From the IMG/VR virus record IMGVR_UViG_3300011547_000001: a stretch of 43,934 nt of DNA, one strand, 5' to 3'. Positions 9,493 to 31,775 of this stretch are shown piece by piece (positions within the stretch are counted from its first letter, which is position 1; each line of letters begins with the position of its first letter). The position numbers and the translations under genes were made by a program. Source of the DNA: an uncultured virus (IMG/VR IMGVR_UViG_3300011547_000001) (Duplodnaviria > Heunggongvirae > Uroviricota > Caudoviricetes). The notes below the pieces were generated by a model that saw only the letters and a list, made by a program, of their open reading frames with translations, did not search any database and was not told the DNA's origin.

Positions 9493-9510
9493 CTAGTGAT
9501 ATAGGTTTCA
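9493..9510 (-). promoter_or_regulatory. Early promoter P2
   Basis: Minus strand TGAAACCTATATCACTAG. Confidence 0.75.
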
Positions 9511-10355: not shown

Positions 10356-10628
10356 TTACTCGGCGATACGTTGGAGGATGAACTTCCCGTCACGCCGCGT
10401 GAAGTGGTAGTCGGTGAAAGCCTGGGGTGGCTCGATCACGACTTCCAGCTTCTTGCCGAGATTGAACACCGACTTCACGTAACCGCCCACGCTCAGATAC
10501 TCGATACTCGGGTTATGGTTGACGACTTCGATAAACCCTTTCTCTTTGAGCTGAGCCTGGAGTTGCTTGAAGGCGTCAAGACCCAACTTCTGGTGGATCT
10601 TGATCTTCTGGGTTTTAGCTTCAGTCAT
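10356..10628 (-). CDS. Hypothetical protein
   Basis: 90-aa ORF with an AAGGA RBS. Confidence 0.8.
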   Translation of the reverse strand: MTEAKTQKIKIHQKLGLDAFKQLQAQLKEKGFIEVVNHNPSIEYLSVGGYVKSVFNLGKKLEVVIEPPQAFTDYHFTRRDGKFILQRIAE

Positions 10629-10643: not shown

Positions 10644-11197
10644 CTAGAGGCCGAATGCCGGGATCAAAATTACCGAGATAATGGCAACCGCAATAGAAAG
10701 CACAGAAAGGCCGACAAAATCGCTGTCTGCTTCTTCCCAGGTAATGCGCCGCATAACCGGTACTTCGCGGGTTTTCCATGGGAAGAAAGATTTCACTTCC
10801 CGAACCTTGTCTCCGTCCTGAACGTACCAGAGGTGGCGGAGTACCTTACAGACGATGGCCACAGCGATCATGGCGAACAATTTGCCGAAGATCTTGATCA
10901 GGATGATCGCAACCGTCAGCAGGCCCGCCGGAGTGGTAATGAAGTTGTTCACTTCCACGCCCAGGTTCTTTGCAGCAAGGCCGATGGCCGTGGCAACTTC
11001 CGTTGCGATACCGGCGTACGCAGAGATCTTTTCAGCATCCGGGATCGGGGTGGCCTTCGCAGACTCTTGAGCTTTGAGGCACTCCAGCTCCAGCTGCTTC
11101 CGAGCCACGTCGGTGATATCACCACCGGTGATGGTGCAACCCGCCCAGCTCGACAAGCTGAACAACGACAGCATTACAACGNNNNNNNNNNTTTCAT
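10644..11197 (-). CDS. Membrane protein with an N-terminal signal peptide
   Basis: Start probably ATG 11197 across the N gap (AAGGA RBS); several TM segments. Confidence 0.8.
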
Positions 11198-16775: not shown

Positions 16776-16793
16776 CTAATGATGTAGGCGTGA
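16776..16793 (-). promoter_or_regulatory. Early promoter P4
   Basis: Minus strand TCACGCCTACATCATTAG. Confidence 0.6.
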
Positions 16794-17379: not shown

Positions 17380-17400
17380 ATAGTGATTGTGCCGTAGTGC

Positions 17401-17820
17401 TTACTTACGCTCGCAATCGAAGAACACTACACCACGATGCAGGTCAGCATCAGGGTCGTCCTTTGTTGCGTATAGGAACATCATGAAGTACGGCTTGCCA
17501 TCGTTGTCATCATGCTTGAAGATGATGGCCCGACTGGTACCAGCAAAGCCACTGATAGAGCCACCCACCTCGTTGGTGAAAGTCTTCTCTTCACGAATCG
17601 CACCATTCGGCTTAACGATGAATTCCTTATCGTTTTGCAGAATGGTAGTCGTCATGTCGATCGGTTGGTTGTCGGTGAGGAACTGGGCAGCGGCATCGAC
17701 TTCGTTGTCGCTGAGCTTCTTGCACTCGTACTTGGTTTCGGTCGAGATATAAACGCTCGTATCAACCGAAGCAAAGCACACAGTTGGGACGAGGAGGAAC
17801 AAGAGACCAAAAGCTTTCAT
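17401..17820 (-). CDS. Exported/periplasmic protein
   Basis: Signal peptide MKAFGLLFLLVPTVCFA; Cys pair (YEC ... VFFDC). Confidence 0.8.
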   Translation of the reverse strand: MKAFGLLFLLVPTVCFASVDTSVYISTETKYECKKLSDNEVDAAAQFLTDNQPIDMTTTILQNDKEFIVKPNGAIREEKTFTNEVGGSISGFAGTSRAIIFKHDDNDGKPYFMMFLYATKDDPDADLHRGVVFFDCERK

Positions 17821-17831
17821 GCGAGATATCC

Positions 17832-18149
17832 TTATTGACTGAGGGTACAGATTGCGTGGGTGCCCAGGACGGTAGTGCCGTAACGGTCACCTCGTTTGAA
17901 TTCTTCGACATGCACATCCCACTTGCTGCCGATTTTTACACGCTCCGCCTCGCTCCTCCTGCAACTCAGTCGCTGATCGGTGTAAACTTGATTGGCGCCG
18001 ATTACCTTGAGGTTTACAGTGCTGTGGCTTTTATTCCTGAGCGTAACGGAAACCACTTCCATGGTAACCACTTTACTGCTGGTGACAATACGTTCTTCAA
18101 AACAACCTGCGAGAAGAACGGTCATCATCAAAATCAGAACAACTTTCAT
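17832..18149 (-). CDS. Lipoprotein
   Basis: Lipobox LLAGC after a hydrophobic signal. Confidence 0.85.
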   Translation of the reverse strand: MKVVLILMMTVLLAGCFEERIVTSSKVVTMEVVSVTLRNKSHSTVNLKVIGANQVYTDQRLSCRRSEAERVKIGSKWDVHVEEFKRGDRYGTTVLGTHAICTLSQ

Positions 18150-18503
18150 CTATCCCTCCTTAAGACGTTTGATGAGCCTTAGTTGTTGACGAAGTGCGGC
18201 GCCGGTCGTGGCAAAGTAATCCTTCAGTCGAACAGTCCCAAGCATCCGCAGTCCTTCATCGATTTCAAGAGACGTGTCGTCACGCTCTTCTCTTTCCTTT
18301 GCATCGAAGAGTGCGTAAGCGCGATTGAGTGCAATGCGACGATCGCAACCCATTTGTTCCATGTACCACTCCACCCACTCGTTCGAGGGGTGATTACCAC
18401 AGGCCGATTTAAAAACAGGTTCTACAGAAACAGCCCGTTTAATGCGCGAAAGAACAAGGGCCGCATTCGACCCAAGTACTTCAGAGATTGCTTTGTGTTT
18501 CAT
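18150..18503 (-). CDS. WxxW-module protein
   Basis: EPVFKSACGNHPSNEWVEWYMEQMGCDRRIALNRA. Confidence 0.8.
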   Translation of the reverse strand: MKHKAISEVLGSNAALVLSRIKRAVSVEPVFKSACGNHPSNEWVEWYMEQMGCDRRIALNRAYALFDAKEREERDDTSLEIDEGLRMLGTVRLKDYFATTGAALRQQLRLIKRLKEG

Positions 18504-18820
18504 ACCTTTATTTCCTGTTTCATGTCACGGCTAAACCGATGGGCGGCCATCCAGAGGATAGCATCAAGGGTATTCGTTTTAACGTGATTGTAACGCCCAC
18601 CGAAAATGCCCTTTTCGTTACCCATCTTCTCAGCGGTTTCATGAGAAACGTTGTGTTTCGCCATACACCAAACAACCCACAGAGGATTCAAGTTGATCTG
18701 GCTATCCACGTACAGCGGTGGTTCATGGGTGGTGTCAATTTGCTGTATCGTTTCTCGCGCAACTCCCACGCCAGGTGGGAGGAAATCAACGAGACCATAT
18801 GGGTCAATGGTGATTTTCAT
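18500..18820 (-). CDS. WxxW-module protein
   Basis: EPPLYVDSQINLNPLWVVWCMAKHNVSHETAEKMG. Confidence 0.8.
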   Translation of the reverse strand: MKITIDPYGLVDFLPPGVGVARETIQQIDTTHEPPLYVDSQINLNPLWVVWCMAKHNVSHETAEKMGNEKGIFGGRYNHVKTNTLDAILWMAAHRFSRDMKQEIKV

Positions 18821-19005
18821 ACGAACTTCCTTTTAGGAGGGGCGATGGCCATGCGTGACTCACCTCGCTGGATGGCCTCTCCAAACGAGGTGTTGTATGT
18901 GTCCATGCACCAGAGGACCCAGGCGTAACTCAGTTCACCTGTGCCTGGATCCACTAGCTTTGGTTCTGTTGTTATTTTCTTTTCGTTTTTGATATCTTTT
19001 TTCAT
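18817..19005 (-). CDS. Stand-alone WxxW-module protein (62 aa)
   Basis: EPKLVDPGTGELSYAWVLWCMDTYNTSFGEAIQRG; AAGGAG RBS. Confidence 0.8.
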   Translation of the reverse strand: MKKDIKNEKKITTEPKLVDPGTGELSYAWVLWCMDTYNTSFGEAIQRGESRMAIAPPKRKFV

Positions 19006-19006
19006 A

Positions 19007-20887
19007 TTACTCCTTCTGTAGTTTAATTGATTTGCCCAGCTTCAGGGCAGTGCTTTCGAAGCTGTAAAGAGCTTCTACCATAGGTTTCTCACCTTGGTTC
19101 AAAAAGAAGATCAGGTCAACCTGCTCTTCCCAGGTGAGCTCCGCCCTACGGCCAGGGATGGAAGTCTTCAGCTTGCCTTTCTTGTCGAATGGCAGATCTT
19201 GCAGACCGAGTCCCCTTTTGTTTAGCTCCGCACGCAGATAACGGATCCAGGAATTGGAGAACCCATTGTCTTCCAGCTTCTTGTGAGCCTTCCTGCAAGC
19301 GACCCACTTCGGATCAAGGTTGACTTTGGAATCAACCACGGTGTTATGATAGGCCGAGATCGCCGCAAAATACCCACCAAAACGCGACACGTTCTTCTGA
19401 TACCACGCGGTCCAGGCAATGGCGTTGTCCCAACCGTCATCTTGCATGAGCGGTGGAGCAGGCTCTGTCGGCGGCGTCTTGCTTGCCAACAAAGTATCCA
19501 GTCCGTTCACAAGCATTTCAAGTTCGGGCGTTGGAACACCCATGCGACGCGCAGCACGTCCGCCAGCAGCTTCTGGATAAAGAAAAGGTGACGCAGCAAG
19601 CCGACGGATAGGATTATCTCCGTCGAAATCAGCTTGCTGGCTTTTACCAGCTACGTTCGACAGCAGTGCCTCGTGACTGTACGAGAGTTCAGCTTCACCC
19701 GTGCTCTTTGTGGGCGCCTCATAAGGACGGCAACCATCGCTTCCACTGCGGTTCAGCACCTGATCCAGCAGAGGTGCCGAATCGATCATCTCGAGCTTCT
19801 TGTGCAACGGTGGAGAAATCTCTGTCTCTCCAATGTCGCGATTGCTCGTGATCACACTCCTCCCTGTGAACGGAATGGCACCATCGAGATGTTTGCGAAG
19901 GATGACAACCTCGTTGAAGCCCTGAGGGTCCCCGAATTTCAGGAGCTCGAGCAACTTCGCTGCGCCAGGCAAGATCACCCGATGATCGAAACCTGGAATA
20001 CCCTTGAAGGAGTACGCCAGATCTTTGGTTACTTGGAAGTGCTCCTGCCAACCGCTGCCGGTGACAACAACGCCGACGATGTTCTTGATCTCCTTGTTCT
20101 CGAAGCTCTCGAAGTCGACGTTGAGTTCTTCCAGGGTCTTGCCCGACACGGTTTCACCGCGCAGGATCACCGAACCACCATCTTCCATGTTGACGGTTAC
20201 CGACAGAGCCCTGAGGGGCTTCGTCGCCGCAGTCTGGATAAAGCTCAGGAGAGTCCCCGTCGCAAGCAGGATGTTAGACCCGTTATGGCGAAGGATGGTT
20301 CGAAGATCAACCGCCATGGTCTTCTTGGCAACCCCGTGAGGATTGAGCACGGTGATCCCTGCTTTGGCTGCACGGCGGTACTTGAGGGACTCGTCAAGCC
20401 ACGCTTTGGTGAGCGACCCATCGTTGATGGCTTTCAGAGGTTCGCCGAAACCAAACATCCCGCGAATGCGTTCTTTTTGCTCGGGGGTCGCTTCTGGTGG
20501 TTCTTGAAGGTAAAAACCCGCATCCAGATAGCTGGTTGGCTTGGGGGCTTGTGCCATGAAGTTGGCGAAGTCGGCGCTTTGCTGTGGAGTGGGGGTGTGG
20601 GCGGCGCGCCAGGCGAACTCATCGACATTGAGGGCGCCTTCACGCAGCAGGTTGGCCACGGGATTTTTGGAAGACAGCACCAGGTCGCGGATGTAGCGGC
20701 CGATCTCGCTCACTGGCTCTTGAGCCATGACGTGTTTGAACACACGTTCTTCCATGACCTTTGGATCAGTCATCATCTCACGAATTTCTTCGTTGGTCAT
20801 GCCCTCGATGAGAGCGCGAACAGAAGCAACACCTTCCTCGGCGACCATTTGATCAACCATTTTCAACAGCTGGGTTTTCTCGTTCAT
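19007..20887 (-). CDS. 626-aa mosaic protein with degenerate RNAP beta-prime motifs and a WxxW module
   Basis: LRKH..FTGRSVITS, VLNR and ADFDGD, then EPAPPL...AWTAWYQK. Confidence 0.85.
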   Translation of the reverse strand: MNEKTQLLKMVDQMVAEEGVASVRALIEGMTNEEIREMMTDPKVMEERVFKHVMAQEPVSEIGRYIRDLVLSSKNPVANLLREGALNVDEFAWRAAHTPTPQQSADFANFMAQAPKPTSYLDAGFYLQEPPEATPEQKERIRGMFGFGEPLKAINDGSLTKAWLDESLKYRRAAKAGITVLNPHGVAKKTMAVDLRTILRHNGSNILLATGTLLSFIQTAATKPLRALSVTVNMEDGGSVILRGETVSGKTLEELNVDFESFENKEIKNIVGVVVTGSGWQEHFQVTKDLAYSFKGIPGFDHRVILPGAAKLLELLKFGDPQGFNEVVILRKHLDGAIPFTGRSVITSNRDIGETEISPPLHKKLEMIDSAPLLDQVLNRSGSDGCRPYEAPTKSTGEAELSYSHEALLSNVAGKSQQADFDGDNPIRRLAASPFLYPEAAGGRAARRMGVPTPELEMLVNGLDTLLASKTPPTEPAPPLMQDDGWDNAIAWTAWYQKNVSRFGGYFAAISAYHNTVVDSKVNLDPKWVACRKAHKKLEDNGFSNSWIRYLRAELNKRGLGLQDLPFDKKGKLKTSIPGRRAELTWEEQVDLIFFLNQGEKPMVEALYSFESTALKLGKSIKLQKE

Positions 20888-20922
20888 TGCGTAAGTTCCT
20901 TAGAAATGAAGAGGTAGGTTAT

Positions 20923-21231
20923 CTACCAGTCTCTGATGCGGTGAATGTCGGCGTTTATGTCCGGATTGAATTCACCTTTTTGAATGTAGAGTTTCGCGAT
21001 GTTCTTTGCGATGTTAGTGGAAACTCGTTTACGGAACTTGTACCAGGTCACCCATACAGGATTAACACCCCCTCGCCCATTTCGGAGCGAGGGAGGGTCC
21101 ATGGCTATGATTGCTTCCTGGCGTTTTGCGTGAGCAGCTTTATACTCACACTGATGCTCGGCCATATACAACGTGGTCCAAGCGTCATTGATCTCACCGT
21201 TAGGCAAGATCGGCTCAGGCCTAGCGCTCAT
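20923..21231 (-). CDS. Protein made of two WxxW-type modules
   Basis: PEPILPNGEINDAWTTLYM...A and PPSLRNGRGGVNPVWVTWYK...A. Confidence 0.8.
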   Translation of the reverse strand: MSARPEPILPNGEINDAWTTLYMAEHQCEYKAAHAKRQEAIIAMDPPSLRNGRGGVNPVWVTWYKFRKRVSTNIAKNIAKLYIQKGEFNPDINADIHRIRDW

Positions 21232-21243
21232 GGCGTCGACCTT

Positions 21244-22041
21244 TTAACTGAGCTGGAAGTAGAACAGCGGATTGCCGTCCATGGTTTTCACGACCAGGTA
21301 CTCGACCTCGAAGTGTTTGCGGTAACCTTTGACGATTTCCACGACTCGCTCCATGTAGAAGTCTTCTGGACCCTTCTCGACGCCAACTCGGCGATGAAGA
21401 TCGGGCTCCTTGTGCAGGTTGGAACTGAGCACGAAGCGCAGCGCGCCAACGTGCTCGCTGAAGAGACCGGATTTACCACACAGACGCTCTTCCAGTTTCT
21501 TGCCCAGATTCAGACCGAGGGCAGGCTTGAAGCCGTTTTCCTTTAGGGTTGCCCATTCCCGCAGGGCGTGGAAGTCGGTGTTCGGGGTCTTGATGAACAC
21601 TGGGCCGTATTTCGTGGGGAGGTCGGCAACGAGTTCTTTGAAGCTTTCGATCCAGAGCGCCGCTTCTTTCACGAGGTCGAACTTGGTGTCGTTACGACGC
21701 AGGCGCTGGAAGATGTTGAAATGACTCGTGTCGCCGACGATTACTTTTTCGAACTCGACGTAAGGGTACAGCTCCAGCAGTTGCTTCAGCGCCGTATCAC
21801 TGAAAATGGCTGCTTTGACCTGGGCGACGGTCATACTGTCCGGATGCACCAGTCCTTCGAGGTTACGCATGACTTGGGCAGCTTCTTCGTCTTTCGCCTT
21901 GCGTTCTTTCTGGGACTTGTACGGCATGGCGCTGACGCCGACGACGTGTTTGATCAGCTCTTCCAGCGGGTTGAGTTTACGACGAGGGTAAGCGCCCACG
22001 GCGTTGATTTGACGTTGCTCAGAGCGGGTCACGTATTGCAT
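21244..22041 (-). CDS. Hypothetical early protein
   Basis: 265 aa with an AAGGAG RBS; first gene after P5. Confidence 0.85.
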   Translation of the reverse strand: MQYVTRSEQRQINAVGAYPRRKLNPLEELIKHVVGVSAMPYKSQKERKAKDEEAAQVMRNLEGLVHPDSMTVAQVKAAIFSDTALKQLLELYPYVEFEKVIVGDTSHFNIFQRLRRNDTKFDLVKEAALWIESFKELVADLPTKYGPVFIKTPNTDFHALREWATLKENGFKPALGLNLGKKLEERLCGKSGLFSEHVGALRFVLSSNLHKEPDLHRRVGVEKGPEDFYMERVVEIVKGYRKHFEVEYLVVKTMDGNPLFYFQLS

Positions 22042-22085
22042 GTAAAACTCCTTGTAGATGAAATGAAATGTTTCGGCTTTACACT

Positions 22086-22103
22086 GTAGTAATATAGATA
22101 CCA
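22086..22103 (-). promoter_or_regulatory. Early promoter P5
   Basis: Minus strand TGGTATCTATATTACTAC, containing exact TATATTAC. Confidence 0.8.
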
Positions 22104-22128
22104 GTCCGGCTGTAACTTAATTACGTGG

Positions 22129-22821
22129 TCAGGATTTATCAGGTTCCACAAAATTGAGTGGGAGAATCTGGTTGTAGTACTGAATGCGCTGGTAGTGGAG
22201 CGCATGAATTACATGCACACTGTCGATCCAGTGGAAGGTTGTTTCACACCACCGCTGCCACGCAGCGCCGTTCTTACGTGGGTCTGGTTCACTGGCGTAG
22301 ATACCACCAAGCTCCGGATGACGCGGTGGTTTTACAGAGCGAATTGGGAAACCGAGTGCCAACTCGTAAAACTTCGCGTCCACGTCACTTTCAGATAATC
22401 CAGGATTGTCGGCTACGTACATTTCGATCCAGTCTTTCTTGTACCCCAGAAACTTTGCCGGATAGTCGTTGAGCGCCTCTTTATTAGTTCGACGTTGTTC
22501 CCGGATGCGGCGACCGCTTTCCACTTGCTTGTCAAAGAGCACCTGGCTCAGCTCTTTGATCCTTGCAGCGCGACCTTCGGGTGTATTGGGGTGTCCGTTG
22601 AAAACTCGGTTGTACACCACCGCGGCGCTGTAGAAGTCGACCGATGGGTTACGCAGGCGGTATCTGCGAATCCAGGCGGTGCGATCATCGAGTTGTTGGG
22701 CGACCGGATCTTGTTCTCGAACGATCTGGTTTTCAGCGTGCAGGCGACGAATAAACCCGTACTTGAAACCAGTGCAGAGATTCTCCCAGCGTTTAGCAAA
22801 GAAGGCTTTAATACGATTCAT
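22129..22821 (-). CDS. Hypothetical protein with degenerate WxxW-type modules
   Basis: TAWIRRY, KDWIEMY and EPDPRKNGAAWQRWC. Confidence 0.8.
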   Translation of the reverse strand: MNRIKAFFAKRWENLCTGFKYGFIRRLHAENQIVREQDPVAQQLDDRTAWIRRYRLRNPSVDFYSAAVVYNRVFNGHPNTPEGRAARIKELSQVLFDKQVESGRRIREQRRTNKEALNDYPAKFLGYKKDWIEMYVADNPGLSESDVDAKFYELALGFPIRSVKPPRHPELGGIYASEPDPRKNGAAWQRWCETTFHWIDSVHVIHALHYQRIQYYNQILPLNFVEPDKS

Positions 22822-22826
22822 GGGCT

Positions 22827-23159
22827 TTACTCGTAAGGTGGGAAACGATTGACTTTGAGACGAGGAACCAGTGGGCCAATTTCGCCGGTTATTGGGTTGC
22901 GGACCATATCCAGTAAAGGATACTGCGGTTCGTAGGTTTTGTTATCTGGTTCTTTGAGCCCACACCACTCGTCGATAACATCGTTTTGCAGACGGAGTTC
23001 GGTTTCAATGGTGCGTCGTTCTCGGGTTACAAGATAACCTTTGGTTTGAACGAGAAAGCCCAGTGGCTTCAGGTAGATCGTGTCCCAGTCAGGGTTAACT
23101 GTGCCGTCTAACATCAAAAGAGGCTGGGGTCGATGAAAATACTGATCGCGAAGATTCAT
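22827..23159 (-). CDS. Hypothetical protein with a partial module
   Basis: PQPLLMLDGTVNPDWDTIY; GAGG RBS. Confidence 0.75.
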   Translation of the reverse strand: MNLRDQYFHRPQPLLMLDGTVNPDWDTIYLKPLGFLVQTKGYLVTRERRTIETELRLQNDVIDEWCGLKEPDNKTYEPQYPLLDMVRNPITGEIGPLVPRLKVNRFPPYE

Positions 23160-23170
23160 AGGGACCTCTC

Positions 23171-23198
23171 ACCATTCCCCACCTAAGCAGGGAATGGT
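23171..23198. other. Intergenic hairpin
   Basis: accattccc...gggaatggt with no U tract on the coding strand. Confidence 0.5.
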
Positions 23199-23203
23199 TT
23201 TGG

Positions 23204-23782
23204 TTAAGGTTGGTTTGGATCGAGGGTATAGGTATATTCCGGGATGGTAACAGGAACGTTCAGCTTACCATCCGACCGTACCGTGTTCACTGGCCGAAGG
23301 TTCCGAATCAGGTAGCTACCATCAGCTGGTACGTTCGGACCCATGTCGATAGGCTTGTGCATCCCATCGATGAGGAGGAACGCCTCACCACCAATGACGT
23401 CAAGCTGGATGTCGATGCTCGCTACACTTTCCTGATCCAGGATCTTCTGGAGCATGTACGCCCTGGGACCCCACCAGTTTTCCATCTTCTCCTTAACGTC
23501 ACCTCCCCAGCCGGCGTTTCCATTACCGTAGGAAATGGACATGCTGTCGAGGAATGGTCGTTGGTCGTGAAGAGAAATGCTGGTAACGACGTCGCCGTTG
23601 ATGAGCTTGTCGAGGTTATCCGGTACCTTGGTAACGGGGAAACGTCTGCCATGGCCCAACAGGAAATACTTGCCCTCGTTCTTGACCAGCTTGAGTTGGT
23701 CGCCGTTCAGGTCTTTCACGTAGCCAATGATCTCGTCACTGATCAGCGGAATGCTTTTGTCGTCATTGTTTAGTTCATTCAT
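23204..23782 (-). CDS. Hypothetical protein
   Basis: AAGGAG RBS before ATG 23782 (MNELNNDD). Confidence 0.8.
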   Translation of the reverse strand: MNELNNDDKSIPLISDEIIGYVKDLNGDQLKLVKNEGKYFLLGHGRRFPVTKVPDNLDKLINGDVVTSISLHDQRPFLDSMSISYGNGNAGWGGDVKEKMENWWGPRAYMLQKILDQESVASIDIQLDVIGGEAFLLIDGMHKPIDMGPNVPADGSYLIRNLRPVNTVRSDGKLNVPVTIPEYTYTLDPNQP

Positions 23783-23792
23783 GGCCAACTCC

Positions 23793-24599
23793 TTAATCGC
23801 AGCTGGGACTGCTGCTATCGCCACCACCACCACTGTAGCTGTCGTCACTACGGCTATTGTCGCTTGGCGGAGAACATTGCGAACTGCTCTGTCGCGTATT
23901 CGATTCGCCGTTATCACTCATCATGGCGCCCAGCACGATACCTTGGGTGAGGCCCATGCCGCCATCATCATGGTGATGATGGTGGTGTTCCACATGAGTG
24001 ACGCGACGTGGCGCCGGAGGAGGTGGCGCCGGTGGAGTCTTCGGGAGGGGGTTGCGGGTAGGTGCCGGATTGATGTTGACCCCCTCGTTCAACCGTTCCA
24101 GCGCACGCGCCTTAGGCCGCTCGGACTTCAACAATGCAAGCTGCTCTGCAAAGATTTTCTCCCGCTCGCCATGATTGTCGGCGTTCAACAAAGCGCGCAG
24201 ACGCTTCGCCAGCTCTTCCGACTCAAGCTTAGTGATATCACCGATCTGCCAATGGATATTCGCCTGCTGAGTTCCCCACACCCGGGGAGCGACGATCTCG
24301 CACATATCACCGAGTGTCATAGGCTTCTGAGCAGCCAGGAGTGATTTACTAATTTTGTCAGCATCTGCAGCCCGCAGATGACCCTGGTCGACCAGATCCT
24401 TTACGAGGTCATTCAGCGCCTTGACACGCACATCCTCCAGAAACGCCTCAACAGAGTTCTCCTCCGCGTCGCACTTGGCCAAGTTGGCCACGCTACGCGC
24501 AGCACGACGATACGACGCATTCCGCCAGATAGCGGCCAGCGCCAGTGCCAGCGCTATACCAACAACCGCATAAAGACCAACTTCACTGATTTGAAACAT
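23793..24599 (-). CDS. Membrane-anchored protein with Pro-, His- and Ser/Gly/Asp-rich tail
   Basis: N-terminal TM helix, PPAPPPPAP, HHHHHH and SDDSYSGGGGDSSSPSCD. Confidence 0.85.
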   Translation of the reverse strand: MFQISEVGLYAVVGIALALALAAIWRNASYRRAARSVANLAKCDAEENSVEAFLEDVRVKALNDLVKDLVDQGHLRAADADKISKSLLAAQKPMTLGDMCEIVAPRVWGTQQANIHWQIGDITKLESEELAKRLRALLNADNHGEREKIFAEQLALLKSERPKARALERLNEGVNINPAPTRNPLPKTPPAPPPPAPRRVTHVEHHHHHHDDGGMGLTQGIVLGAMMSDNGESNTRQSSSQCSPPSDNSRSDDSYSGGGGDSSSPSCD

Positions 24600-24610
24600 G
24601 TTTGTACTCC

Positions 24611-24922
24611 TTACAGTTTAAGGCCTTTGACAAAGATGCACCAGTAGAGGGTTGCCCAGCCTCCCAGGTGCAATACCAGCAGCAACGCCGCACCAATCAT
24701 TTCCCAAGGGTTCCTGAAGGGCCAGTGGCGCTGCATGCGCTGCCAACGCGTGCGTTTAGGGGGAATGTACGGCTGATCCCCCAGTAGCTCCAGAAACGCC
24801 TCAGCGGAGCTTATGGAAGCCAAATGGTCAGCCACCATTTGTTTGGCCTCCTCAATGTTGTTTGGAACGGGTTCACTGATAATGTTCTTTTTATCAGGGA
24901 ACTTGTAGACTCTCGCCGTCAT
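24611..24922 (-). CDS. Membrane protein
   Basis: 103 aa with a C-terminal TM helix. Confidence 0.75.
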   Translation of the reverse strand: MTARVYKFPDKKNIISEPVPNNIEEAKQMVADHLASISSAEAFLELLGDQPYIPPKRTRWQRMQRHWPFRNPWEMIGAALLLVLHLGGWATLYWCIFVKGLKL

Positions 24923-25124
24923 TGGTTCTACGCTCCAGTTCTTGTTTTACCATCTCGAGATGCCGACGAGTGATGCTGATCGGAAACTCAAACCGATAGA
25001 AGCTGAAGGTAAATCCTCCCTCCAGCATCTTAGGCATTTCTTCTATTTCGTGCGGCTTGAGCTTTGGGAGGATATCCCTTATCCGCCGATCTTCCATGGA
25101 GAGGAAAGGCAGCACGTTGCTCAT
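24894..25124 (-). CDS. Hypothetical protein homologous to the C-terminus of 25597-26175
   Basis: GFTFSFY...HLEMVKQELERRT versus GNTFSYY...HLELVKQELRSRT. Confidence 0.8.
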   Translation of the reverse strand: MSNVLPFLSMEDRRIRDILPKLKPHEIEEMPKMLEGGFTFSFYRFEFPISITRRHLEMVKQELERRTNDGESLQVP

Positions 25125-25600
25125 GGGAAGGGTTTCCCTGGATTAACCAGTTGATGGAGATCTTTGTAGAGTTCGATCAGTTCAGGGGTTTGTGGCGGGT
25201 TCAGGGAATCCTGGATAGCACCGGTCGACGTCCGGTGAGTCGCCATCTTGTATTTATTGTCCATGAACGGCATCGCCATGAAGGTCTCCTTGGACTTGAT
25301 CAGTTCGTCCATGGTCTCCGTTATTGGCCTGAACCAGAAATTATCGAAATGTCCCCATTTGAAAGACTGGACCATTTGCTCCGTAGGGATATCACGGAAC
25401 GGATAACCCGGCCAAGGCCCATCGCCCTTCGCTTTCAGCTCTTCCATGATGTCAATCGGAGCGGCCACCTCCTTGTACATCGGTTGTCCCTTATTGTCGC
25501 AGGGAAGCCCGTTCTCATCGGAAAAGAACATTATCTTTTGACCTAGCGGCAGCAGGTCGTTGAATTTTTGGAGGTCACCCCAGCCAATACGTTGTTTCAT
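25121..25600 (-). CDS. Hypothetical protein
   Basis: 159 aa with ATGA overlaps at both ends. Confidence 0.8.
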   Translation of the reverse strand: MKQRIGWGDLQKFNDLLPLGQKIMFFSDENGLPCDNKGQPMYKEVAAPIDIMEELKAKGDGPWPGYPFRDIPTEQMVQSFKWGHFDNFWFRPITETMDELIKSKETFMAMPFMDNKYKMATHRTSTGAIQDSLNPPQTPELIELYKDLHQLVNPGKPFP

Positions 25601-26175
25601 ACGGTTCTGCTCCTCAGTTCTTGCTTGACGAGTTCCAGGTGTTCGATACCGATCACCAGGGTCGGAGTGTAGTTGTAGTAGCTAAAGGTATTACCCTTTG
25701 GCAGTTGGTCTTGGATCACCAGCAACTCATTCAGCGGTAAACCGCCGAGCACTTGCTTGACCTGCCAGAGGGTTTTACCTTTCTTATTGTCTTCGGCTTC
25801 TTGTTGGTGTTTGAGTGCAATGCCGAAACGAACAGCTTCCGTAGGCGGGATACGGTCAAAGTAACTTACATTCAAAACCCACGCCATGGAAAGCTTGAAG
25901 CGATCACCCAGGATCATTTGCGGTTCTTGGTGTTCGAACTCGAAATTGGCGTCGTAGTTCAGCAGATTCTTTTCCAGGGTGTTCATAACGTTGAGCGCAA
26001 TATTCACCTTGCCGGGCGTGGCTTCGATCAGTTCGTAAACCGGAGGGTGTGGTCGCCCGTTAGCCCGCAGGATGTTCCAGTTCAGCCAGCTGATCCAATC
26101 CAGCGATGGTGCTTGTTCGACGTGCGTCCAGAGAGATGGCTCTTCGTCTTGGACGGGATACGGAAACTTGTTCAT
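25597..26175 (-). CDS. Protein with two WxxW-type modules and a C-terminal domain shared with 24894-25124
   Basis: EEPSLW...PSLDWISW and QEPQMILGDRFKLSMAWV...TEAVRFG. Confidence 0.85.
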   Translation of the reverse strand: MNKFPYPVQDEEPSLWTHVEQAPSLDWISWLNWNILRANGRPHPPVYELIEATPGKVNIALNVMNTLEKNLLNYDANFEFEHQEPQMILGDRFKLSMAWVLNVSYFDRIPPTEAVRFGIALKHQQEAEDNKKGKTLWQVKQVLGGLPLNELLVIQDQLPKGNTFSYYNYTPTLVIGIEHLELVKQELRSRTV

Positions 26176-26238
26176 ACGGATTCCTTAAGGGCAAATGCCG
26201 TTATTTACCATTACAATGCATGTTGCCCTTTAAAGTTA

Positions 26239-26859
26239 TTAGCTCCTGTACTCAATGTTCAACGGTCGGTTGTCATCACGCCAGGTTTTGTAGGTACCGT
26301 CCGCATTGAAGATGAGGGTGATATGTGGGAAATTACCACCACTAATGCATTCCTGGACAGCTGCCAGAACAGCGGTGTTGAAACGCACTTTGTGGTCAAT
26401 AGCAAACCACACAGCGTAATCCCAGTTGAACTGACCACCGTGAAATGCGTCTTTGAACGTAGGCCGAGGAACCCCACCATTTACACGCTCAGTCAGATGC
26501 CGATAGAGGTTATAATCCCGATCAGTTTTCTTGCGATACTTCTTGAGCTTTTGATTTTCGGCCCAGGCTCTGAAATCACGATGATACGATGGCTCTGGAA
26601 GAGATGCCTTGAGAAGCACAAGCACGTCGGCTGTTGAGAGATCACTCTCCCTGGACATCTTCTTTTCGTAGACAGCAGACCATGCACTAATCACCGACTT
26701 TTCCCAGGGAGGATTGTTCATACCAATCCACTTGGCTTTTGTGGCGGCGTCCCATTTCTTAGCTTGCCTTTCCTTGTGTTTAATGTAGCCAGTGACAAAA
26801 GTCCAGGTGCCGAGAACCAGTACCACTGCGGCGATAACTTCTTTGAGACCGAATTCCAT
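26239..26859 (-). CDS. Membrane-anchored protein with a degenerate module
   Basis: N-terminal TM helix; PRPTFKDAFHGGQFNWDYAVWFAIDHKVRFNTAV. Confidence 0.8.
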   Translation of the reverse strand: MEFGLKEVIAAVVLVLGTWTFVTGYIKHKERQAKKWDAATKAKWIGMNNPPWEKSVISAWSAVYEKKMSRESDLSTADVLVLLKASLPEPSYHRDFRAWAENQKLKKYRKKTDRDYNLYRHLTERVNGGVPRPTFKDAFHGGQFNWDYAVWFAIDHKVRFNTAVLAAVQECISGGNFPHITLIFNADGTYKTWRDDNRPLNIEYRS

Positions 26860-26862
26860 TGA

Positions 26863-27099
26863 TTACTCCTTTCCGTTGTTCTTGAGGAAGTCCTTACCGA
26901 GCATCTTCGCAGCTGGGAGTGAGATGCCGTAGAAGTCACGAGCCCATTTCAGCCACTCCCAACTAAGCCCGCACTTCAGATCTCCCTCGATCTGTGGTTC
27001 ACCGGCGTTACGATGGTGGTCGCTTCCAGTCCGAGGCATCCAGGTGCGAAGATAGGTATGGACTGGAGCGTGGTTATTTTCATGCACAGTGAGTTTCAT
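26863..27099 (-). CDS. Near stand-alone WxxW-module protein
   Basis: EPQIEGDLKCGLSWEWLKWARDFYGISLPAAKMLG. Confidence 0.8.
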   Translation of the reverse strand: MKLTVHENNHAPVHTYLRTWMPRTGSDHHRNAGEPQIEGDLKCGLSWEWLKWARDFYGISLPAAKMLGKDFLKNNGKE

Positions 27100-27746
27100 T
27101 TGGGTTCCTCCACCCAGCCACGGAGTTCGCTGTACTTCTTGATTTCGTCGAGGTCTTCTTTACCCCAGATAACACGAAGCTTTTCCATGGTCTCCGCACT
27201 GAACTTCTTGTCCACTCCGAAGGTGCATCCAGAGAAGCCAAACTGGCGGAACATGGCAATACGCCCGTTGAACGACTCACGACGGTTAGCCGACATCCAC
27301 AGTAAAACGATTTCGTTGATGATCTCGTCTTCCTGTTCCTGAGCCCAGCGGTCATCGCGGCTCTTGATCCAGCTGGGGTTGGTTTTGATGCTCACCCCGT
27401 GGATTTCTTCGCCGTCCATGATCATCCCGTGGTTGCCGTCATCGATGAGATCCTGCATGACGACAGGGAACTCGTCCATCTGAGTGAAGTTACGTTTCAT
27501 CCACCCCACCGGGTCCTTGACGCAGAACAGGTTGTAGAAAAAGCCCTTCTGGATGGATTCCGGGCAGAGAGGGCGGATACGCTCTGCGAAGAGCAAGAGT
27601 TTCGTCTTGTTCGTCTTGAAGTGTTTGCGGAAGTAGTTGTACAGGTACAGTTCCTGATCGAACGGGTCCGCTTCATGGGGCCAGACGAAAGGCTCAGGCT
27701 TGTGAGCGGTGGTGTTGTAGTGGGCGAGGTTGCGTGCGGTAGACAT
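27096..27746 (-). CDS. Hypothetical protein
   Basis: 216 aa within an operon. Confidence 0.85.
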   Translation of the reverse strand: MSTARNLAHYNTTAHKPEPFVWPHEADPFDQELYLYNYFRKHFKTNKTKLLLFAERIRPLCPESIQKGFFYNLFCVKDPVGWMKRNFTQMDEFPVVMQDLIDDGNHGMIMDGEEIHGVSIKTNPSWIKSRDDRWAQEQEDEIINEIVLLWMSANRRESFNGRIAMFRQFGFSGCTFGVDKKFSAETMEKLRVIWGKEDLDEIKKYSELRGWVEEPK

Positions 27747-27748
27747 GA

Positions 27749-28114
27749 TCAGTTTTCCGTGTAAGGGACAGCGCCGTGAATGAGGAAGTTGAGAATGGTA
27801 TCATTGGCCTCGGTGATAAATGGGTACGTCATATAGATCCCAGCGATGACCTCATCTTCGGAGAGCCTGTATAACACATCAATCCGGCCATTTTCGTGCG
27901 CTTCTACAACTACACTACGAGAGATCGGGCAGGCTTCGCCTGGTTTACCAGAGTGTTCGGTTTTGTGGTAGGTGAGTTTATGACCTTCGATGGTCGAAAC
28001 AACCACACCGTTTTGTTCTTTGGCGTACTTGGGTTCCTTAGCCCATTCAGCTAATTCGCTCTCGAAGGCGATCAAGGACTTGAGAATAGTCCCTCGCAAG
28101 ATAGTAAAAGCCAT
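27749..28114 (-). CDS. Hypothetical protein, paralog of 28117-28452
   Basis: ILKSLIAFESEL...ILNFLIHG versus ILYALSAFHAEL...VLNYLVDG. Confidence 0.8.
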   Translation of the reverse strand: MAFTILRGTILKSLIAFESELAEWAKEPKYAKEQNGVVVSTIEGHKLTYHKTEHSGKPGEACPISRSVVVEAHENGRIDVLYRLSEDEVIAGIYMTYPFITEANDTILNFLIHGAVPYTEN

Positions 28115-28116
28115 GT

Positions 28117-28452
28117 TTATTCCTTAGGCGGTTCTACACCGTCGACCAGATAGTTGAGAACGTGGATGAGGTAGTCGTGTTTGATCTGGATATCCGCCAC
28201 ACGGAAATGACCCGTGCGGACGTACAGCCTGGCACCTACAAACAGCAGCGCCAACATTCCGTCAACAGAGATGACCTGAACGGAACGATCGCTGTCAGCC
28301 ACGCGGTAGACCCGAGTGTTATTGCCGTAAGGCGAGGCCACGATCTCGGTCTTCCGTTTGTAATGCTCGTACAGTTTGGTGGCTTTGACCAGTTCTGCGT
28401 GAAAAGCACTCAGTGCGTACAGAATAGCGTCGTTAGCGACTGAAACACCCAT
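28117..28452 (-). CDS. Hypothetical protein, paralog of 27749-28114
   Basis: 111 aa with a GGAG RBS. Confidence 0.8.
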   Translation of the reverse strand: MGVSVANDAILYALSAFHAELVKATKLYEHYKRKTEIVASPYGNNTRVYRVADSDRSVQVISVDGMLALLFVGARLYVRTGHFRVADIQIKHDYLIHVLNYLVDGVEPPKE

Positions 28453-28455
28453 AAC

Positions 28456-28788
28456 TCACTCCCTTGCCTTTTCGTGGTCGTCTTGGGTGAGTTCATCGAG
28501 CACTAAGAAGGCACGACCACATTTACATTCTGATTGGCTCTTAACCTTAAACCCGTATGCTGAGATCAGCATAGCGCGGCCGTTGGCAAGAGGTTGGAAA
28601 CTTACGGCTTTACCGCCAGAGGCGAGCTTAACCTTGCGTACCTCGCTCATGACGGTAAAGCCTGCGGTACCGAGGATGTAATCGTCGATCAGTTCTTCGA
28701 GGGCCTTACGGCATTCTTCAACATCAAGACCCTCGAACAACTTAGCCACCCGCTCGCTAAGAACCTCTTGTATCTCAAAGCGGTTCAT
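28456..28788 (-). CDS. Hypothetical protein
   Basis: 110 aa; TAATG coupling. Confidence 0.8.
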   Translation of the reverse strand: MNRFEIQEVLSERVAKLFEGLDVEECRKALEELIDDYILGTAGFTVMSEVRKVKLASGGKAVSFQPLANGRAMLISAYGFKVKSQSECKCGRAFLVLDELTQDDHEKARE

Positions 28789-29393
28789 TATTCCCCCTGT
28801 GGTTTCACCATGTAGGTGTTATCGGTCGTCATTTTGTTGATCTGCGGCTCTCCGTCCTTGAGGTGACCCACTACCCGACCTGCATCGTTGACCAGCCGTA
28901 CTGGTGGTCGCTCTGGGCGAACAGGGCGGCTTTTTCCACGTTTGACGAGGCCCACAAACTTACCGCGTTCTAGCAGTACTTCTGGCTCGCGGTCTGGAAG
29001 TACAGGTGCGGGTTGGTTTGGCACGTCCATTTGTTTGAATCCTTCCTCCGTGCCATAAATGGCCAGTGGCGTCTTGGCTTTTTCAAGCGACTTCTTCAGT
29101 CGATCCACCTGGCTGCGCATGCGGCGATTGGAACGACGCAACGCATTGATTTCACCAGTGCTCCAGAGGATACGCTGGGCCAAGGCTACCATCATTTCTT
29201 CGGGGGTTTCGTTATGAGCCATGTTGTTGACCATGACTTTCTTGAGCAGAGTTACGATGTCCTGTTCTGGCAGGAGGAAATTCTCCTTGTGAACAGGGAT
29301 GTCCAGATTGTGTTTAGACACCAGGTCATTGAGGTAATCTTGAACGGCGAACAGGTCACCTTTAAAGTGCATGCGATTGTCTAAGCTGGTCAT
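28788..29393 (-). CDS. Hypothetical early protein with a coiled coil
   Basis: 201 aa with an AAGGAG RBS; first gene after P6. Confidence 0.85.
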   Translation of the reverse strand: MTSLDNRMHFKGDLFAVQDYLNDLVSKHNLDIPVHKENFLLPEQDIVTLLKKVMVNNMAHNETPEEMMVALAQRILWSTGEINALRRSNRRMRSQVDRLKKSLEKAKTPLAIYGTEEGFKQMDVPNQPAPVLPDREPEVLLERGKFVGLVKRGKSRPVRPERPPVRLVNDAGRVVGHLKDGEPQINKMTTDNTYMVKPQGE

Positions 29394-29419
29394 GTAAAAC
29401 TCCTTGCATTAGTTACATC

Positions 29420-29437
29420 GTGGTAATATAGGTTTAA
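29420..29437 (-). promoter_or_regulatory. Early promoter P6
   Basis: Minus strand TTAAACCTATATTACCAC. Confidence 0.8.
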
Positions 29438-29453
29438 TAAATTGTGCGGTGCC

Positions 29454-29488
29454 AAAAATAAAGCCTTAGGGGACTAGGTCCCCTAAGG
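29454..29488 (-). terminator. Rho-independent terminator
   Basis: ccttaggggac-tag-gtcccctaagg followed by CTTTATTTTT. Confidence 0.85.
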
Positions 29489-29494
29489 TTGGTA

Positions 29495-30679
29495 TTACTG
29501 GGCGTCCTGGTAATCTGGACCGGCGTGCGTCAGGCGCTTGGTGTAATCGATCTGATACACGTTATGGATGTTCGGATGCCAGGCGTGCTTGAAGAGTGCT
29601 TCTTCCTTACGGAACTTGTTTGTCATGAGGCGCCGGGCGCCCTCTTCCCAGGCAACATCGAAGCCACAGGAATGGGTACGGCGGAACCATTGCACCCATT
29701 CCTTCGAAAGGGTGAGCCCGTTGGAGTCACGAGAATCCTTGATTTCCGGTTCAGTGGGCCCTTCCTCGATGCGGCGCTGGATGGCCTGGGTGAAACGCAC
29801 CATGGCGTTGATCGGGCTAACGACCTTTTCATCGCCGAGATCGATAACGAGCATGTTCTCGGTAACGCGAGGTTGGGCCAGACGACGTGCCACTTCTTTA
29901 CCCAGGGCACTCAGGTACTTGCGGCCGAAGGTTACGGGATTACCCACGGGACCGCAGGGAACAGTGAAGGAACCGCCCATCTGGAGATGGAGCGTCTGGA
30001 AGAAGCCGGTGAGCCAGGTGTCGGAGCAGTTTTCCAGGGTGCGGACGAGCTGCTGCTCTTTATATTCTTCGAGCGGCTCTTCGATCACGGCACGCTCTTC
30101 CAGTGCCATCTCACCCATTCGAGCACGTTCGTAGAGAACGGAGATGGCCTGGGAGCGGAACTTGGGCAACAGCGTGATCGGAGTAGGGCAGCCGTCGAAG
30201 GTGAAGGTGGTGGGCTCGACGTCGTTGGGATTGCGCTTGACTTCGGTGTTTTTCAGGAAGTTGAACACCTGCTCGGTGGTCATGGCTTCGAGGGTTTTCA
30301 TGCTGCTTTGTGCTTTTTTGTCGTCCACGTTTTCATTCCTTGGTGAAGCATCATGTTGTCTGGCAAAGGCCAGGAGTTCGGAGAGGCGTTCCGCGGCGTC
30401 TTCTACGCTGCCAGGAATGTCACATTGCACGAGATCGGTGCCCGAGATATTGATGACGAAGCGGAAATCCTTCAGGGAGTCATGTTCCTCACCGACGCGC
30501 GGAGCGCTGTACTTGATCTCGGTGCCTTCGTCGATAATCCGCACCACGAGCATGCAGTCACCGATGGTCATGAACGTATTACCTTTTTGGTCACTGAGGT
30601 AAGTCCAGTTATTACGGATGAAGATGTGGCTGAGTTCCTCACCTTCTTTGACCATCTTGGCAACCAATGGACTGGTCAT
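29495..30679 (-). CDS. 394-aa protein with a C-terminal WxxW module
   Basis: EPEIKDSRDSNGLTLSKEWVQWFRRTHSCGFDVAWEEG. Confidence 0.85.
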   Translation of the reverse strand: MTSPLVAKMVKEGEELSHIFIRNNWTYLSDQKGNTFMTIGDCMLVVRIIDEGTEIKYSAPRVGEEHDSLKDFRFVINISGTDLVQCDIPGSVEDAAERLSELLAFARQHDASPRNENVDDKKAQSSMKTLEAMTTEQVFNFLKNTEVKRNPNDVEPTTFTFDGCPTPITLLPKFRSQAISVLYERARMGEMALEERAVIEEPLEEYKEQQLVRTLENCSDTWLTGFFQTLHLQMGGSFTVPCGPVGNPVTFGRKYLSALGKEVARRLAQPRVTENMLVIDLGDEKVVSPINAMVRFTQAIQRRIEEGPTEPEIKDSRDSNGLTLSKEWVQWFRRTHSCGFDVAWEEGARRLMTNKFRKEEALFKHAWHPNIHNVYQIDYTKRLTHAGPDYQDAQ

Positions 30680-31449: not shown

Positions 31450-31701
31450 TTATTCCCCCTTGATTGGATTGCAGGTTACATTAACCGAGGTATTACCGAC
31501 CAGAAGGCTCCCTTCCTTACTGGCCCGGATATGGGTAGGACCAGAAGACTTGATGTGATTCTTCAGGCCAGCGTGTTTGACAACTGTCATCATTGCCGAC
31601 TTACACTCACTGGCGTCGATGACATTGTTGGTGACCGTCCTGACCTGCTCACTGGGTGGGCCACCGCCAATAAGGAACGTGGCGAGTAGGAGCGCTTTCA
31701 T
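31450..31701 (-). CDS. Small exported protein
   Basis: Hydrophobic N-terminus and two Cys. Confidence 0.75.
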   Translation of the reverse strand: MKALLLATFLIGGGPPSEQVRTVTNNVIDASECKSAMMTVVKHAGLKNHIKSSGPTHIRASKEGSLLVGNTSVNVTCNPIKGE

Positions 31702-31764: not shown

Positions 31765-31775
31765 ACTACAACGGT

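Follow-up and report, generated by a model that had tools for sequence, protein, structure and literature searches.

An accessory protein of an uncultured virus, which we call P0001, contains about 120 residues derived from the β′ subunit of a phage RNA polymerase (RNAP). On balance, we favor the view that P0001 captured a fragment of the N-terminal β′ subunit (β′-N) of a non-virion RNAP (nvRNAP), that the fragment has since eroded in a protein that is not a polymerase, and that two islands of it have been kept by selection on the peptide, with mimicry of the active center as the likeliest reason. The captured fragment (aa ~305–425) covers switch 2, the opening strand of the double-psi β-barrel (DPBB), and the loop that carries the Asp triad. 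P0001 (626 aa; ORF list) is encoded at 19007..20887 of the 43,934-nucleotide viral sequence that was analyzed (the window), on the minus strand, as are all features described below.

Organization and Genomic Location of P0001

The P0001 gene lies in an expanded variable region, between an RNA-ligase/Acb1-like gene and a GNAT gene, in synteny with EL gp122–gp146. The analysis shows that the source is an EL-like nucleus-forming jumbo phage and that the protein is lineage-specific, modular, and accessory. P0001 begins with a helical part, followed by an α/β core, a flexible middle, and a helical C-terminal part that carries W-x2-W modules. The family-conserved core (aa 166–316, 19940..20392) is defined by alignment A1 and contains the invariant pattern TGxGWQEHxQxT..LxYSFKGxPGxDxRxIL. 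AF2 run with A1 predicted an α/β sandwich for aa 178–316 (pLDDT 65–78), whose fold matches were weak (best Foldseek E 0.012; VIA Z 5.0–5.5 to Mog1/DcrB/SciW-type folds). Judged from the predicted model, the core is unrelated to RNAP. The W-x2-W module (aa 478–520, PPLMQDDGWDNAIAWTAWYQKN..., 19328..19456) is common to P0001, P0004, and neighboring small genes; A1 and the sequence place it downstream of the β′ segment, where it had previously been noticed. The conserved C-terminal tail, ALxSFxxTAxKLGKxIKxQKE (19010..19090), is defined by A1 and also occurs in P0082.

Generic searches were run with the whole protein and with parts of it. Pfam returned no family at E ≤ 10, PF00623 (domain 2 of RNAP β′/Rpb1, which forms the double-psi β-barrel) included, for whole P0001 or for three pieces of it; PHROGs gave no match, and a tblastn search of 50,697 phage records with full-length P0001 gave none at E ≤ 1e-3. 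Searching the PDB with phmmer revealed no RNAP match for whole P0001 or a 130-aa segment, and the segment had no match at E ≤ 10, phiKZ gp55 included. The family profile found no RNAP in the PDB; its best match there, the KMT2A SET domain (7u5v_A), was weak at E 1.5, and no SET chain was among the matches listed in the Foldseek and VIA fold searches. The AF2 model from the single sequence (pLDDT 36.4) was unusable, and of the model made with A1 (pLDDT 47.1) only the core was usable. Foldseek found no PDB match at E ≤ 0.001. VIA-align wide peaked at Z 5.7, with no match at 8 or more, which falls within the noise as the tool defines it, and the top ESM Atlas feature score of 0.78 (integrase N-terminal clusters) came with TM ≤0.22, short of the level given for chance. 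Compared with the β′ profile, the family profile was weakly similar (E 0.025, probability 2%). These profile, AF2, and fold results agree with a sequence-only reading of the window, which had judged P0001 outside the β′ segment not to be RNAP-like.

The negative Pfam result for P0001 is weak because Pfam also misses the genuine split β′ gene of EL. PF00623 was silent on the six-frame EL genome despite matches in all 14 of 14 control genomes, and 36 of 75 β′-N homologs have no precomputed PF00623 match.

The β′ Origin of the Segment

A lineage-specific profile (A2; 538 positions) was made from 29 EL-clade nvRNAP β′-N subunits of the phiKZ gp55 type. Its authenticity was checked by a profile search of the PDB, which returned PHIKZ055 (7ogp_A) at 1.8e-48 and then bacterial β′ (329–476); in the EL genome, it matches gp024 and gp026 only. 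When A2 was used in hmmsearch against the 392 stop-to-stop ORFs of the window, P0001 scored best (E 8.1e-6) and matched in two colinear domains. Domain 1 (16.2 bits, i-E 1.4e-7, HMM 339–386) is block 1, aa 324–369 (FNEVVILRKHLDGAIPFTGRSVITSNRDIGETEISPPLHKKLEMID, 19781..19918), and corresponds to the switch-2 and first-barrel-strand region of β′. Domain 2 (i-E 0.011, HMM 467–480) is block 2, aa 412–425 (VAGKSQQADFDGDN, 19613..19654), and contains the Asp-triad motif ADFDGD (aa 419–424, 19616..19633). None of 3000 shuffles of P0001 attained 18.9 bits, the best reaching 5.1. A2 was aligned by hhalign to aa 319–355 over 37 columns (probability 91.8%, E 7.5e-7), and BLASTP against EL gp024 gave 17 of 30 identities (pairwise E 1e-4). 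The aligned extent given by hhalign and HMMER is 37–48 plus 14 of the 538 positions. Block 1 is identical at 21 of 34 residues to the β′-N protein P0019 (tblastn) and includes PFTGRSVITS (aa 339–348, 19844..19873), ten consecutive residues that equal the family consensus in A2. The similarity reaches past the motifs (FN..RKH, P..KK).

When 75 β′-N proteins were searched against the window with tblastn, the best 25 matches all fell at 19613–19987 in the frame of the gene. The segment itself, searched against the 50,697 phage records at E ≤ 10, produced eight matches, all eight at the same site of an EL-type β′ gene, with E values (5–9) that are not significant alone. HMMER, hhalign, tblastn, and a MAFFT fragment alignment delimit the β′-derived segment to aa 305–425 (19613..19975), equivalent to positions of about 322–481 in the β′-N profile and about 329–465 in E. 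coli β′. At the level of sequence comparison, the match to β′ is confirmed as real and more than chance; BLASTP, tblastn, hhalign, and HMMER uphold the proposal that a phage RNAP β′ gene gave rise to this segment, which is colinear with it and eroded. As far as sequence can tell, the source is shown to be an EL-clade nvRNAP β′-N subunit of the phiKZ gp55/EL gp024 type. Its assignment to nvRNAP, as opposed to vRNAP, is a probable one drawn from the best matches, which are nvRNAP proteins.

The motifs named in the sequence-only reading, ILRKHLDGAIPFTGRSVITS, QVLNR, and QQADFDGD, do occur colinearly in the translation, with the claimed spacing of 77 aa from G342 to A419; QADFDGD (aa 418–424) keeps all three Asp residues, its Gln replacing Asn. 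The placement of QVLNR differs between methods: the MAFFT fragment alignment sets it on the NRAPTLH-equivalent "QxGRNPSIEY," and local tblastn sets it on "FLYRRGH," about 40 residues earlier. Similarity to β′ profiles, also anticipated, was found with A2 and was absent with generic Pfam.

Erosion and Predicted Loss of the Barrel

Comparison of A2 with P0001 indicates that 13 of the 29 invariant β′ columns survive and 16 are lost. Retention is uneven: 7/10 in the stretch L327–P379, 1/14 in W380–I468, 5/5 in DFDGD, and 0/7 after DFDGD. The segment is about 40 aa shorter than its β′-N counterpart. The NRAPTLH-type motif (GRNPSIEYLS in the EL clade) is not retained, with R439, P441, L446, and S447 all replaced; both its equivalent and the hydrophobic barrel strands have become hydrophilic sequence. 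In the strand after DFDGD, the conserved xMYxV of β′ reads NPIRRL. The Zn-finger cysteines of A2 (C106/C108/C123/C126) lie outside all aligned stretches and are not kept. Since capture, about 40 aa have been deleted and the barrel strands replaced. A frameshift origin of the eroded parts was considered and rejected: tblastn of the 75 β′-N proteins in six frames gave no other-frame match better than E 0.15 within 19400–20150, and 94 of the 140 matches there were in the gene's own frame.

A double-psi β-barrel, which the sequence-only reading had thought worth seeking by structure prediction, was not predicted by AF2; aa 320–420 were modeled as coil with pLDDT of about 20–24 from shallow alignments of one and four sequences. 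These low values may stem from an alignment of just four sequences and not from true disorder. We infer that P0001 is not a polymerase and has no DPBB fold.

Relatives of P0001

A search of 1.84 billion representatives, together with the members of their clusters, found only four relatives (P0002, P0003, P0082, and P0004; E values 2e-31 to 1e-18). All four share the α/β core, and P0001 bears the family hallmarks, the invariant core pattern given above and the tail motif KLGKxIKxQKE (A1; P0082). Searches with P0001 and/or A1 found no relatives encoded in viral, metagenome, or genome contigs, and the profile search with A1 returned P0001 and P0002 only.

Among the relatives, the β′ region varies in length and aligns poorly (A1). 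Conservation of the two motifs in homologs, which the β′ interpretation had looked to, held in part: the first block is present in three of the four, in degenerate form only, and ADFDGD is absent from all four, so that the family must be able to do without it. The best-scoring place of the β′ HMM in P0002 is the orthologous KFNRAGISRRHLA; P0001 and P0002 have 10 of 24 residues in common in this block (a by-eye count from the alignment midline) versus 43% in the core. Alignment by eye suggests that "HPFGKGILV" of P0004 and "VPTLGEVIKI" of P0082 are degenerate forms of the block; P0004 was not reported by the β′ HMM. These alignments show that at least P0001 and P0002 inherited the fragment from a shared ancestor.

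Preservation of Two Islands

The islands RKH..PFTGRSVITS and ADFDGD are both letter-perfect while 13 of the 14 intervening invariant columns have been lost, which suggests peptide-level selection on them. The DNA that encodes TGRSVITS is identical to that of EL at 13 of 24 nucleotides and differs at 11, with AGY set against TCN at each of the two Ser positions; we count the identical peptide despite divergent codons as an indication of conservation at the peptide level.

The main alternative, which we hold to be possible and clearly the less probable of the two, is that the β′ piece sits in a variable linker as functionless baggage, that the core and W-modules do all of the work, and that the islands either outlasted a patchy decay or were copied in as short gene-conversion tracts from the β′ gene that the phage itself carries. 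The lack of ADFDGD in every relative, the variable length and poor alignment of the region, the segment pLDDT of about 22, and the loss of 16 invariant columns and about 40 aa are all consistent with such a neutral leftover. However, runs of 10 and 6 identities beside 1/14 retained invariants are hard to obtain by uniform decay; the peptide is the same as in EL, yet 11/24 nucleotides differ, serine codon switches included; and block 1 has diverged between P0001 and P0002 at a rate equal to that of the conserved core. Recent patchy gene conversion may be the source of the two islands, whose DNA was compared with the β′ gene of EL.

It is very improbable that P0001 has a catalytic or trans-complementing role, in which it would supply the Mg-binding DFDGD loop, whether as a minimal nucleotidyl transferase or to restore the active-site piece missing from a β′-N gene that a homing endonuclease has split, as in EL. 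The intact Asp triad and GRSVITS strand would suit such a role, as would the HNH/NUMOD endonuclease gene that interrupts EL β′-N precisely at YNA|DFDGD and the many β′-N homologs (36/75) lacking a precomputed PF00623 match; against it, the NRAPTLH-equivalent and barrel strands are gone, NPIRRL has replaced xMYxV, the Zn-finger cysteines are not kept, AF2 predicts no barrel, and the relatives lack the Asp triad. Chance coincidence of short motifs can be dismissed almost outright: the Pfam, PHROGs, and PDB sequence searches were silent and the β′ 8-mer NPSIEYLS also occurs, apparently fortuitously, in an unrelated 90-aa ORF of the window, but BLASTP, tblastn, hhalign, and HMMER agree, no shuffle of 3000 came near the observed score, and the similarity continues past the motifs.

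Discussion

If P0001 is a captured and eroded β′-N fragment whose islands are under selection, the flexible linker would present a mimic of the β′ active-center strand and of the acidic Mg-binding loop, while the core and W-modules would carry the main function of the protein. The partner of the mimic would be something that ordinarily contacts these residues, most plausibly the β-like barrel subunit as RNAP assembles, or else a metal ion. This mimicry step is pure inference, and the roles put forward from the sequence (pseudo-subunit, RNAP inhibitor, or defense decoy) are speculation. In a more specific version, which we think unlikely, the stolen polymerase piece would be a weapon or regulator, a pseudo-subunit peptide that docks on the β-like barrel subunit and poisons or tunes RNAP assembly. 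It would act either on the nvRNAP of its own phage, serving as a timing switch, or on the RNAP of a related jumbo phage in the same cell, as interference competition; the latter would, by analogy and with equally little likelihood, parallel the attack of intron endonucleases on RNAP genes.

P0001 resembles nvRNAP β′-N (phiKZ gp55, PDB 7OGP chain A; EL gp024+gp026) locally, being colinear over switch 2, the GRSVITS strand, and the DFDGD loop, and is closest to the EL clade. phiKZ gp55 bears both the DPBB and DFDGD (PMC7618050). Only about 120 of the 626 residues of P0001 are related to this subunit; P0001 is without the Zn-finger cysteines, an NRAPTLH-equivalent, and a predicted barrel, and its gene is in an accessory region, not beside the shell-protein gene. 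A second comparison is with the σ-like fifth subunit, phiKZ gp68/AR9 gp226, in which a flexible acidic linker connects two domains and, in gp68, enters the active-site cleft (PMC7618050). P0001 is alike in size and layout, and the analogy is one of layout only; in the searches run, P0001 had no sequence or fold similarity to any PDB chain.

Chimallivirus RNAP genes are also disrupted by introns and endonucleases; phiPA3 gp210, for one, targets phiKZ gp178 (PMC11620839). Together with the HNH/NUMOD gene at YNA|DFDGD of EL, these cases point to the DNA of the active-site motifs as a hotspot of recombination and conflict. P0001 differs from them in having no endonuclease domain (Pfam) and an uninterrupted ADFDGD.

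YonO, gp66 of crAss-like phages, the P23-45 tape-measure RNAP, and QDE-1 are single-chain two-barrel RNA polymerases. Such enzymes retain two complete barrels, and their homologs retain the Asp triad. P0001 is like them in having a DxDGD motif in a protein unseen by generic profiles and unlike them in having no predicted barrel and relatives without the triad. The generic profile PF00623 misses both the relic and the true split β′ genes of the EL clade, which is a warning for its use.

Few sequences in biology are as conserved as those of the active sites of multisubunit RNA polymerases, which, to our knowledge, are normally absent outside polymerases. A literature search that was not exhaustive found no earlier report of a β′ fragment in an accessory protein. 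P0001 is a statistically supported case in which about 120 residues of a catalytic subunit reside in an unrelated accessory protein, with the Asp loop and the adjoining strand kept and the fold apparently lost. If the islands are non-functional, P0001 nonetheless illustrates cleanly how a gene fragment was captured in a hypervariable region of these genomes. If they are functional, mimicry by a subunit fragment would be a new viral route to regulate or attack a polymerase, and P0001 would strengthen the case that co-infecting chimalliviruses fight one another over RNAP genes.

Identification of a beta-prime segment in P0001

The gene for P0001, the 626-aa accessory protein, occupies 19007..20887 (-). 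The sequence-only reading had claimed three colinear motifs resembling the RNA polymerase (RNAP) beta-prime subunit, and translation of 19613-19975 confirmed them in that order: ILRKHLDGAIPFTGRSVITS (aa 329-348), QVLNR (aa ~377-381), and QQADFDGD (aa 417-424). The claimed spacing of about 77 aa was also borne out, as G342 and A419 lie 77 residues apart; the equivalent distance in the N-terminal beta-prime subunit (beta-prime-N) of the EL clade is 116 (R361 to D477). A 427-aa open frame antisense to the gene (19634-20917 (+)) is probably a shadow ORF.

Generic searches were silent. Whole P0001 and three pieces of it gave no Pfam match at E ≤ 10, PHROGs contained no match to P0001, phmmer against PDB sequences returned no RNAP, and a tblastn search with full-length P0001 matched none of 50,697 phage records. 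The Pfam result is no argument against beta-prime ancestry in this clade, because PF00623, positive in 14/14 control cellular genomes, also misses the six-frame translated genome of Pseudomonas phage EL (NC_007623). EL gp024, encoded beside the nuclear-shell gene and labelled 'RNA polymerase beta subunit', reads ...FNKHGINRKHVCAGPVPLTGRSVITSQTGI... at the matching site and aligns to P0001 with 17/30 identities (BLASTP, E 1e-4). We gathered 75 gp024 homologs and built an alignment (A2) from the 29 full-length ones. Its consensus includes PFTGRSVITS and NADFDGD. Searched against PDB, A2 matches PHIKZ055 (7ogp_A) best, at E 1.8e-48, and next residues 329-476 of bacterial beta-prime, which identifies A2 as genuine beta-prime. 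The phiKZ gp55 subunit has a double-psi beta-barrel and 417-DFDGD-421 (PMC7618050).

The profile similarity that was absent from Pfam appeared with this lineage-specific profile: hhalign of A2 against P0001 gave a probability of 91.8% and E 7.5e-7 over 37 columns. In hmmsearch with A2, P0001 ranked first among 392 stop-to-stop ORFs of the window (E 8.1e-6), with two colinear domains (HMM 339-386 to aa 324-369, 16.2 bits; HMM 467-480 to aa 412-425); its score of 18.9 bits was reached by 0/3000 shuffles, the best of which scored 5.1. When the 75 beta-prime-N proteins were searched against the window by tblastn, the best 25 matches all fell at 19613-19987 in the frame of the P0001 gene (top E 5.5e-6), and one of these proteins, P0019, was identical to P0001 at 21/34 residues. 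Residues 318-430 searched against the whole phage collection (tblastn, E ≤ 10) gave eight matches, all to the same site in the beta-prime gene of EL-like phages; their E-values of 5-9 are not significant alone, and it is the shared placement that counts. On these sequence comparisons, the match of P0001 to its lineage's own beta-prime is real, and the proposed origin of the segment stands. The fragment lies inside an otherwise unrelated protein.

Erosion of the segment

Retention of invariant A2 columns, counted on a MAFFT fragment alignment, was uneven. Across L327-P379 (switch 2, GRSVITS) 7/10 are kept, and across W380-I468 (helical insert, the NRAPTLH-equivalent GRNPSIEYLS, barrel strands) only 1/14; DFDGD retains 5/5 and the stretch after it 0/7. 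With about 40 residues missing as well, the fragment is heavily eroded. The placement of QVLNR varies, corresponding to the NRAPTLH-equivalent in the MAFFT alignment versus FLYRRGH in local tblastn alignments. AF2 with a four-sequence alignment gave pLDDT 65-78 for aa 178-316 and coil at ~20-24 for aa 320-420; the double-psi beta-barrel suggested for inspection was not predicted from this alignment. That the eroded parts are beta-prime in another frame was rejected, since tblastn with the 75 beta-prime-N proteins revealed no explanatory other-frame similarity.

When the 392 ORFs are ranked by the beta-prime HMM, second place (E 0.041) goes to a 90-aa ORF at 10356-10628 (-) that contains NPSIEYLS, identical to part of the GRNPSIEYLS missing from P0001. 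Its EL ortholog, gp144, reads NPVEGEVV at this position, which makes chance or micro-conversion likelier than common descent.

The P0001 family

An exhaustive phmmer search of 1.84 billion representatives yielded just three relatives, P0002 (366 aa), P0003 (317 aa), and P0004 (619 aa), and a cluster look-up contributed a fourth, P0082 (392 aa). Two elements recur in all of them, the core (TGxGWQEHxQxT..LxYSFKGxPGxDxRxIL, aa 166-316) and a C-terminal tail; the N-terminus is common to P0001, P0003, P0004, and P0082, and P0002 begins at the core. An alpha/beta sandwich is predicted for the core, and fold searches with it gave only weak matches: Foldseek reached E 0.012 at best, and VIA gave Z 5.0-5.5 to Mog1/DcrB/SciW-type chains, with no match at Z ≥ 8.

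The family profile matches the beta-prime profile weakly (E 0.025). In the beta-prime block, P0002 FNRAGISRRHLAVPKTFIGMKAIT aligns to P0001 FNEVVILRKHLDGAIPFTGRSVIT with 10/24 residues identical by our own count, similar to the 43% in the core, and this orthologous block is exactly where the beta-prime HMM places best in P0002. The split between the two proteins thus postdates the fragment, which is old within this small family. By eye alone, HPFGKGILV of P0004 and VPTLGEVIKI of P0082 look like further-degenerated forms of the first block. In the homologs, then, the first block would persist in three, in degenerate form, and ADFDGD is absent at the matching place from 4/4 relatives. An FDGD does follow the W-module of P0004 but is unrelated.

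Genomic context

The window comes from a jumbo phage of the nucleus-forming type, related to EL. Its GroEL-like chaperonin (7786-9456) is 38-39% identical to those of EL and Erwinia phage RisingSun and matched 117 phage records. An NAD-dependent ligase, RNase H, GNAT, and an Acb1/RNA-ligase-like protein (34303-34878 (-); Pfam Acb1 (anti-CBASS) E 1.9e-8; PHROG 'RNA ligase'; syntenic with EL gp126) follow the EL gp122-gp146 order. The P0001 gene sits between the RNA-ligase-like and GNAT genes. This interval (17400-34300) spans ~17 kb, versus ~5 kb in EL, is filled by ORFs with no Pfam or PHROG match, and thus resembles an accessory island that has expanded. The window has six stretches of exactly 10 N (1869-1878, 4354-4363, 6445-6454, 11182-11191, 32891-32900, 41960-41969), all outside the P0001 gene.

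Seven copies of a module, [N/D]PxW[V/I/T]xW[Y/C]M...S...A, were found by regex across six consecutive minus-strand ORFs of 18150-23159 (18150-18503, 18500-18820, 18817-19005, 19007-20887, 20923-21231, 22129-22821), with weaker look-alikes in 22827-23159 (-). Elsewhere in the window the regex hit three stray minus-strand ORFs and no plus-strand ORF. P0004 likewise carries an [N/D]PxW...W module. The module-bearing ORFs have no Pfam or PHROGs match and look like a local paralog family.

The motif TTyAAAyCTACATnATy, labelled 'putative phage promoter' in EL, has seven matches in the window with ≤3 mismatches, a count not above chance (11/100 shuffles yield ≥7). All are on the gene strand (-), at 5935-5950, 9495-9510, 16778-16793, 29422-29437, 32844-32859, 33556-33571, and 43891-43906; one of them fits the motif fully and another differs at one position. 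Because none occurs between 29437 and 16778, the 29.4-kb promoter-like site may serve the P0001 gene. A partial look-alike, AACCTACCTCTTCATTT, lies immediately upstream of the gene start.

Origin and nature of the fragment

Among chimalliviruses, the intron-encoded HNH endonuclease gp210 of phiPA3 attacks conserved Asp codons in the RNAP gene of a phage infecting the same cell (PMC11620839). EL gp025 is an HNH/NUMOD1 endonuclease gene (NUMOD1 E 3e-8; HNH_3 22.6 bits, just below cut-off) inserted in beta-prime-N (NC_007623, 4227-7275) exactly at ...GPYNA | DFDGD...; RefSeq labels the pieces 'RNA polymerase beta subunit', 'putative replication protein', and 'hypothetical protein'. Precomputed PF00623 matches are missing from 36/75 beta-prime-N homologs, many of them ~470-515 aa rather than ~540, which suggests that splitting at DFDGD is common. 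DNA that encodes these motifs is thus a hotspot of recombination and conflict, offering a plausible, unproven route for capture of a beta-prime fragment into P0001.

With the fold determinants lost, no barrel predicted, and the triad lost in relatives, we infer that P0001 is not a polymerase. The defining features tested are lacking, placing it outside the beta-prime family despite the beta-prime-derived segment, and we rate it a captured or eroded enzyme fragment, pseudo-enzyme-like. The literature that we searched contained no description of a beta-prime fragment within an accessory protein. Two islands, PFTGRSVITS and ADFDGD, are letter-perfect over 10 and 6 residues beside a stretch retaining 1/14 invariants, and the TGRSVITS coding DNA is identical to EL at only 13/24 nucleotides, both serines being AGY versus TCN. 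The islands could alternatively stem from patchy gene conversion, with the phage's own copy of beta-prime as donor. We read the intact islands and differing codons as selection at the peptide level, which suggests that the P0001 linker would act as a mimic of the active-centre strand of beta-prime together with its acidic loop.
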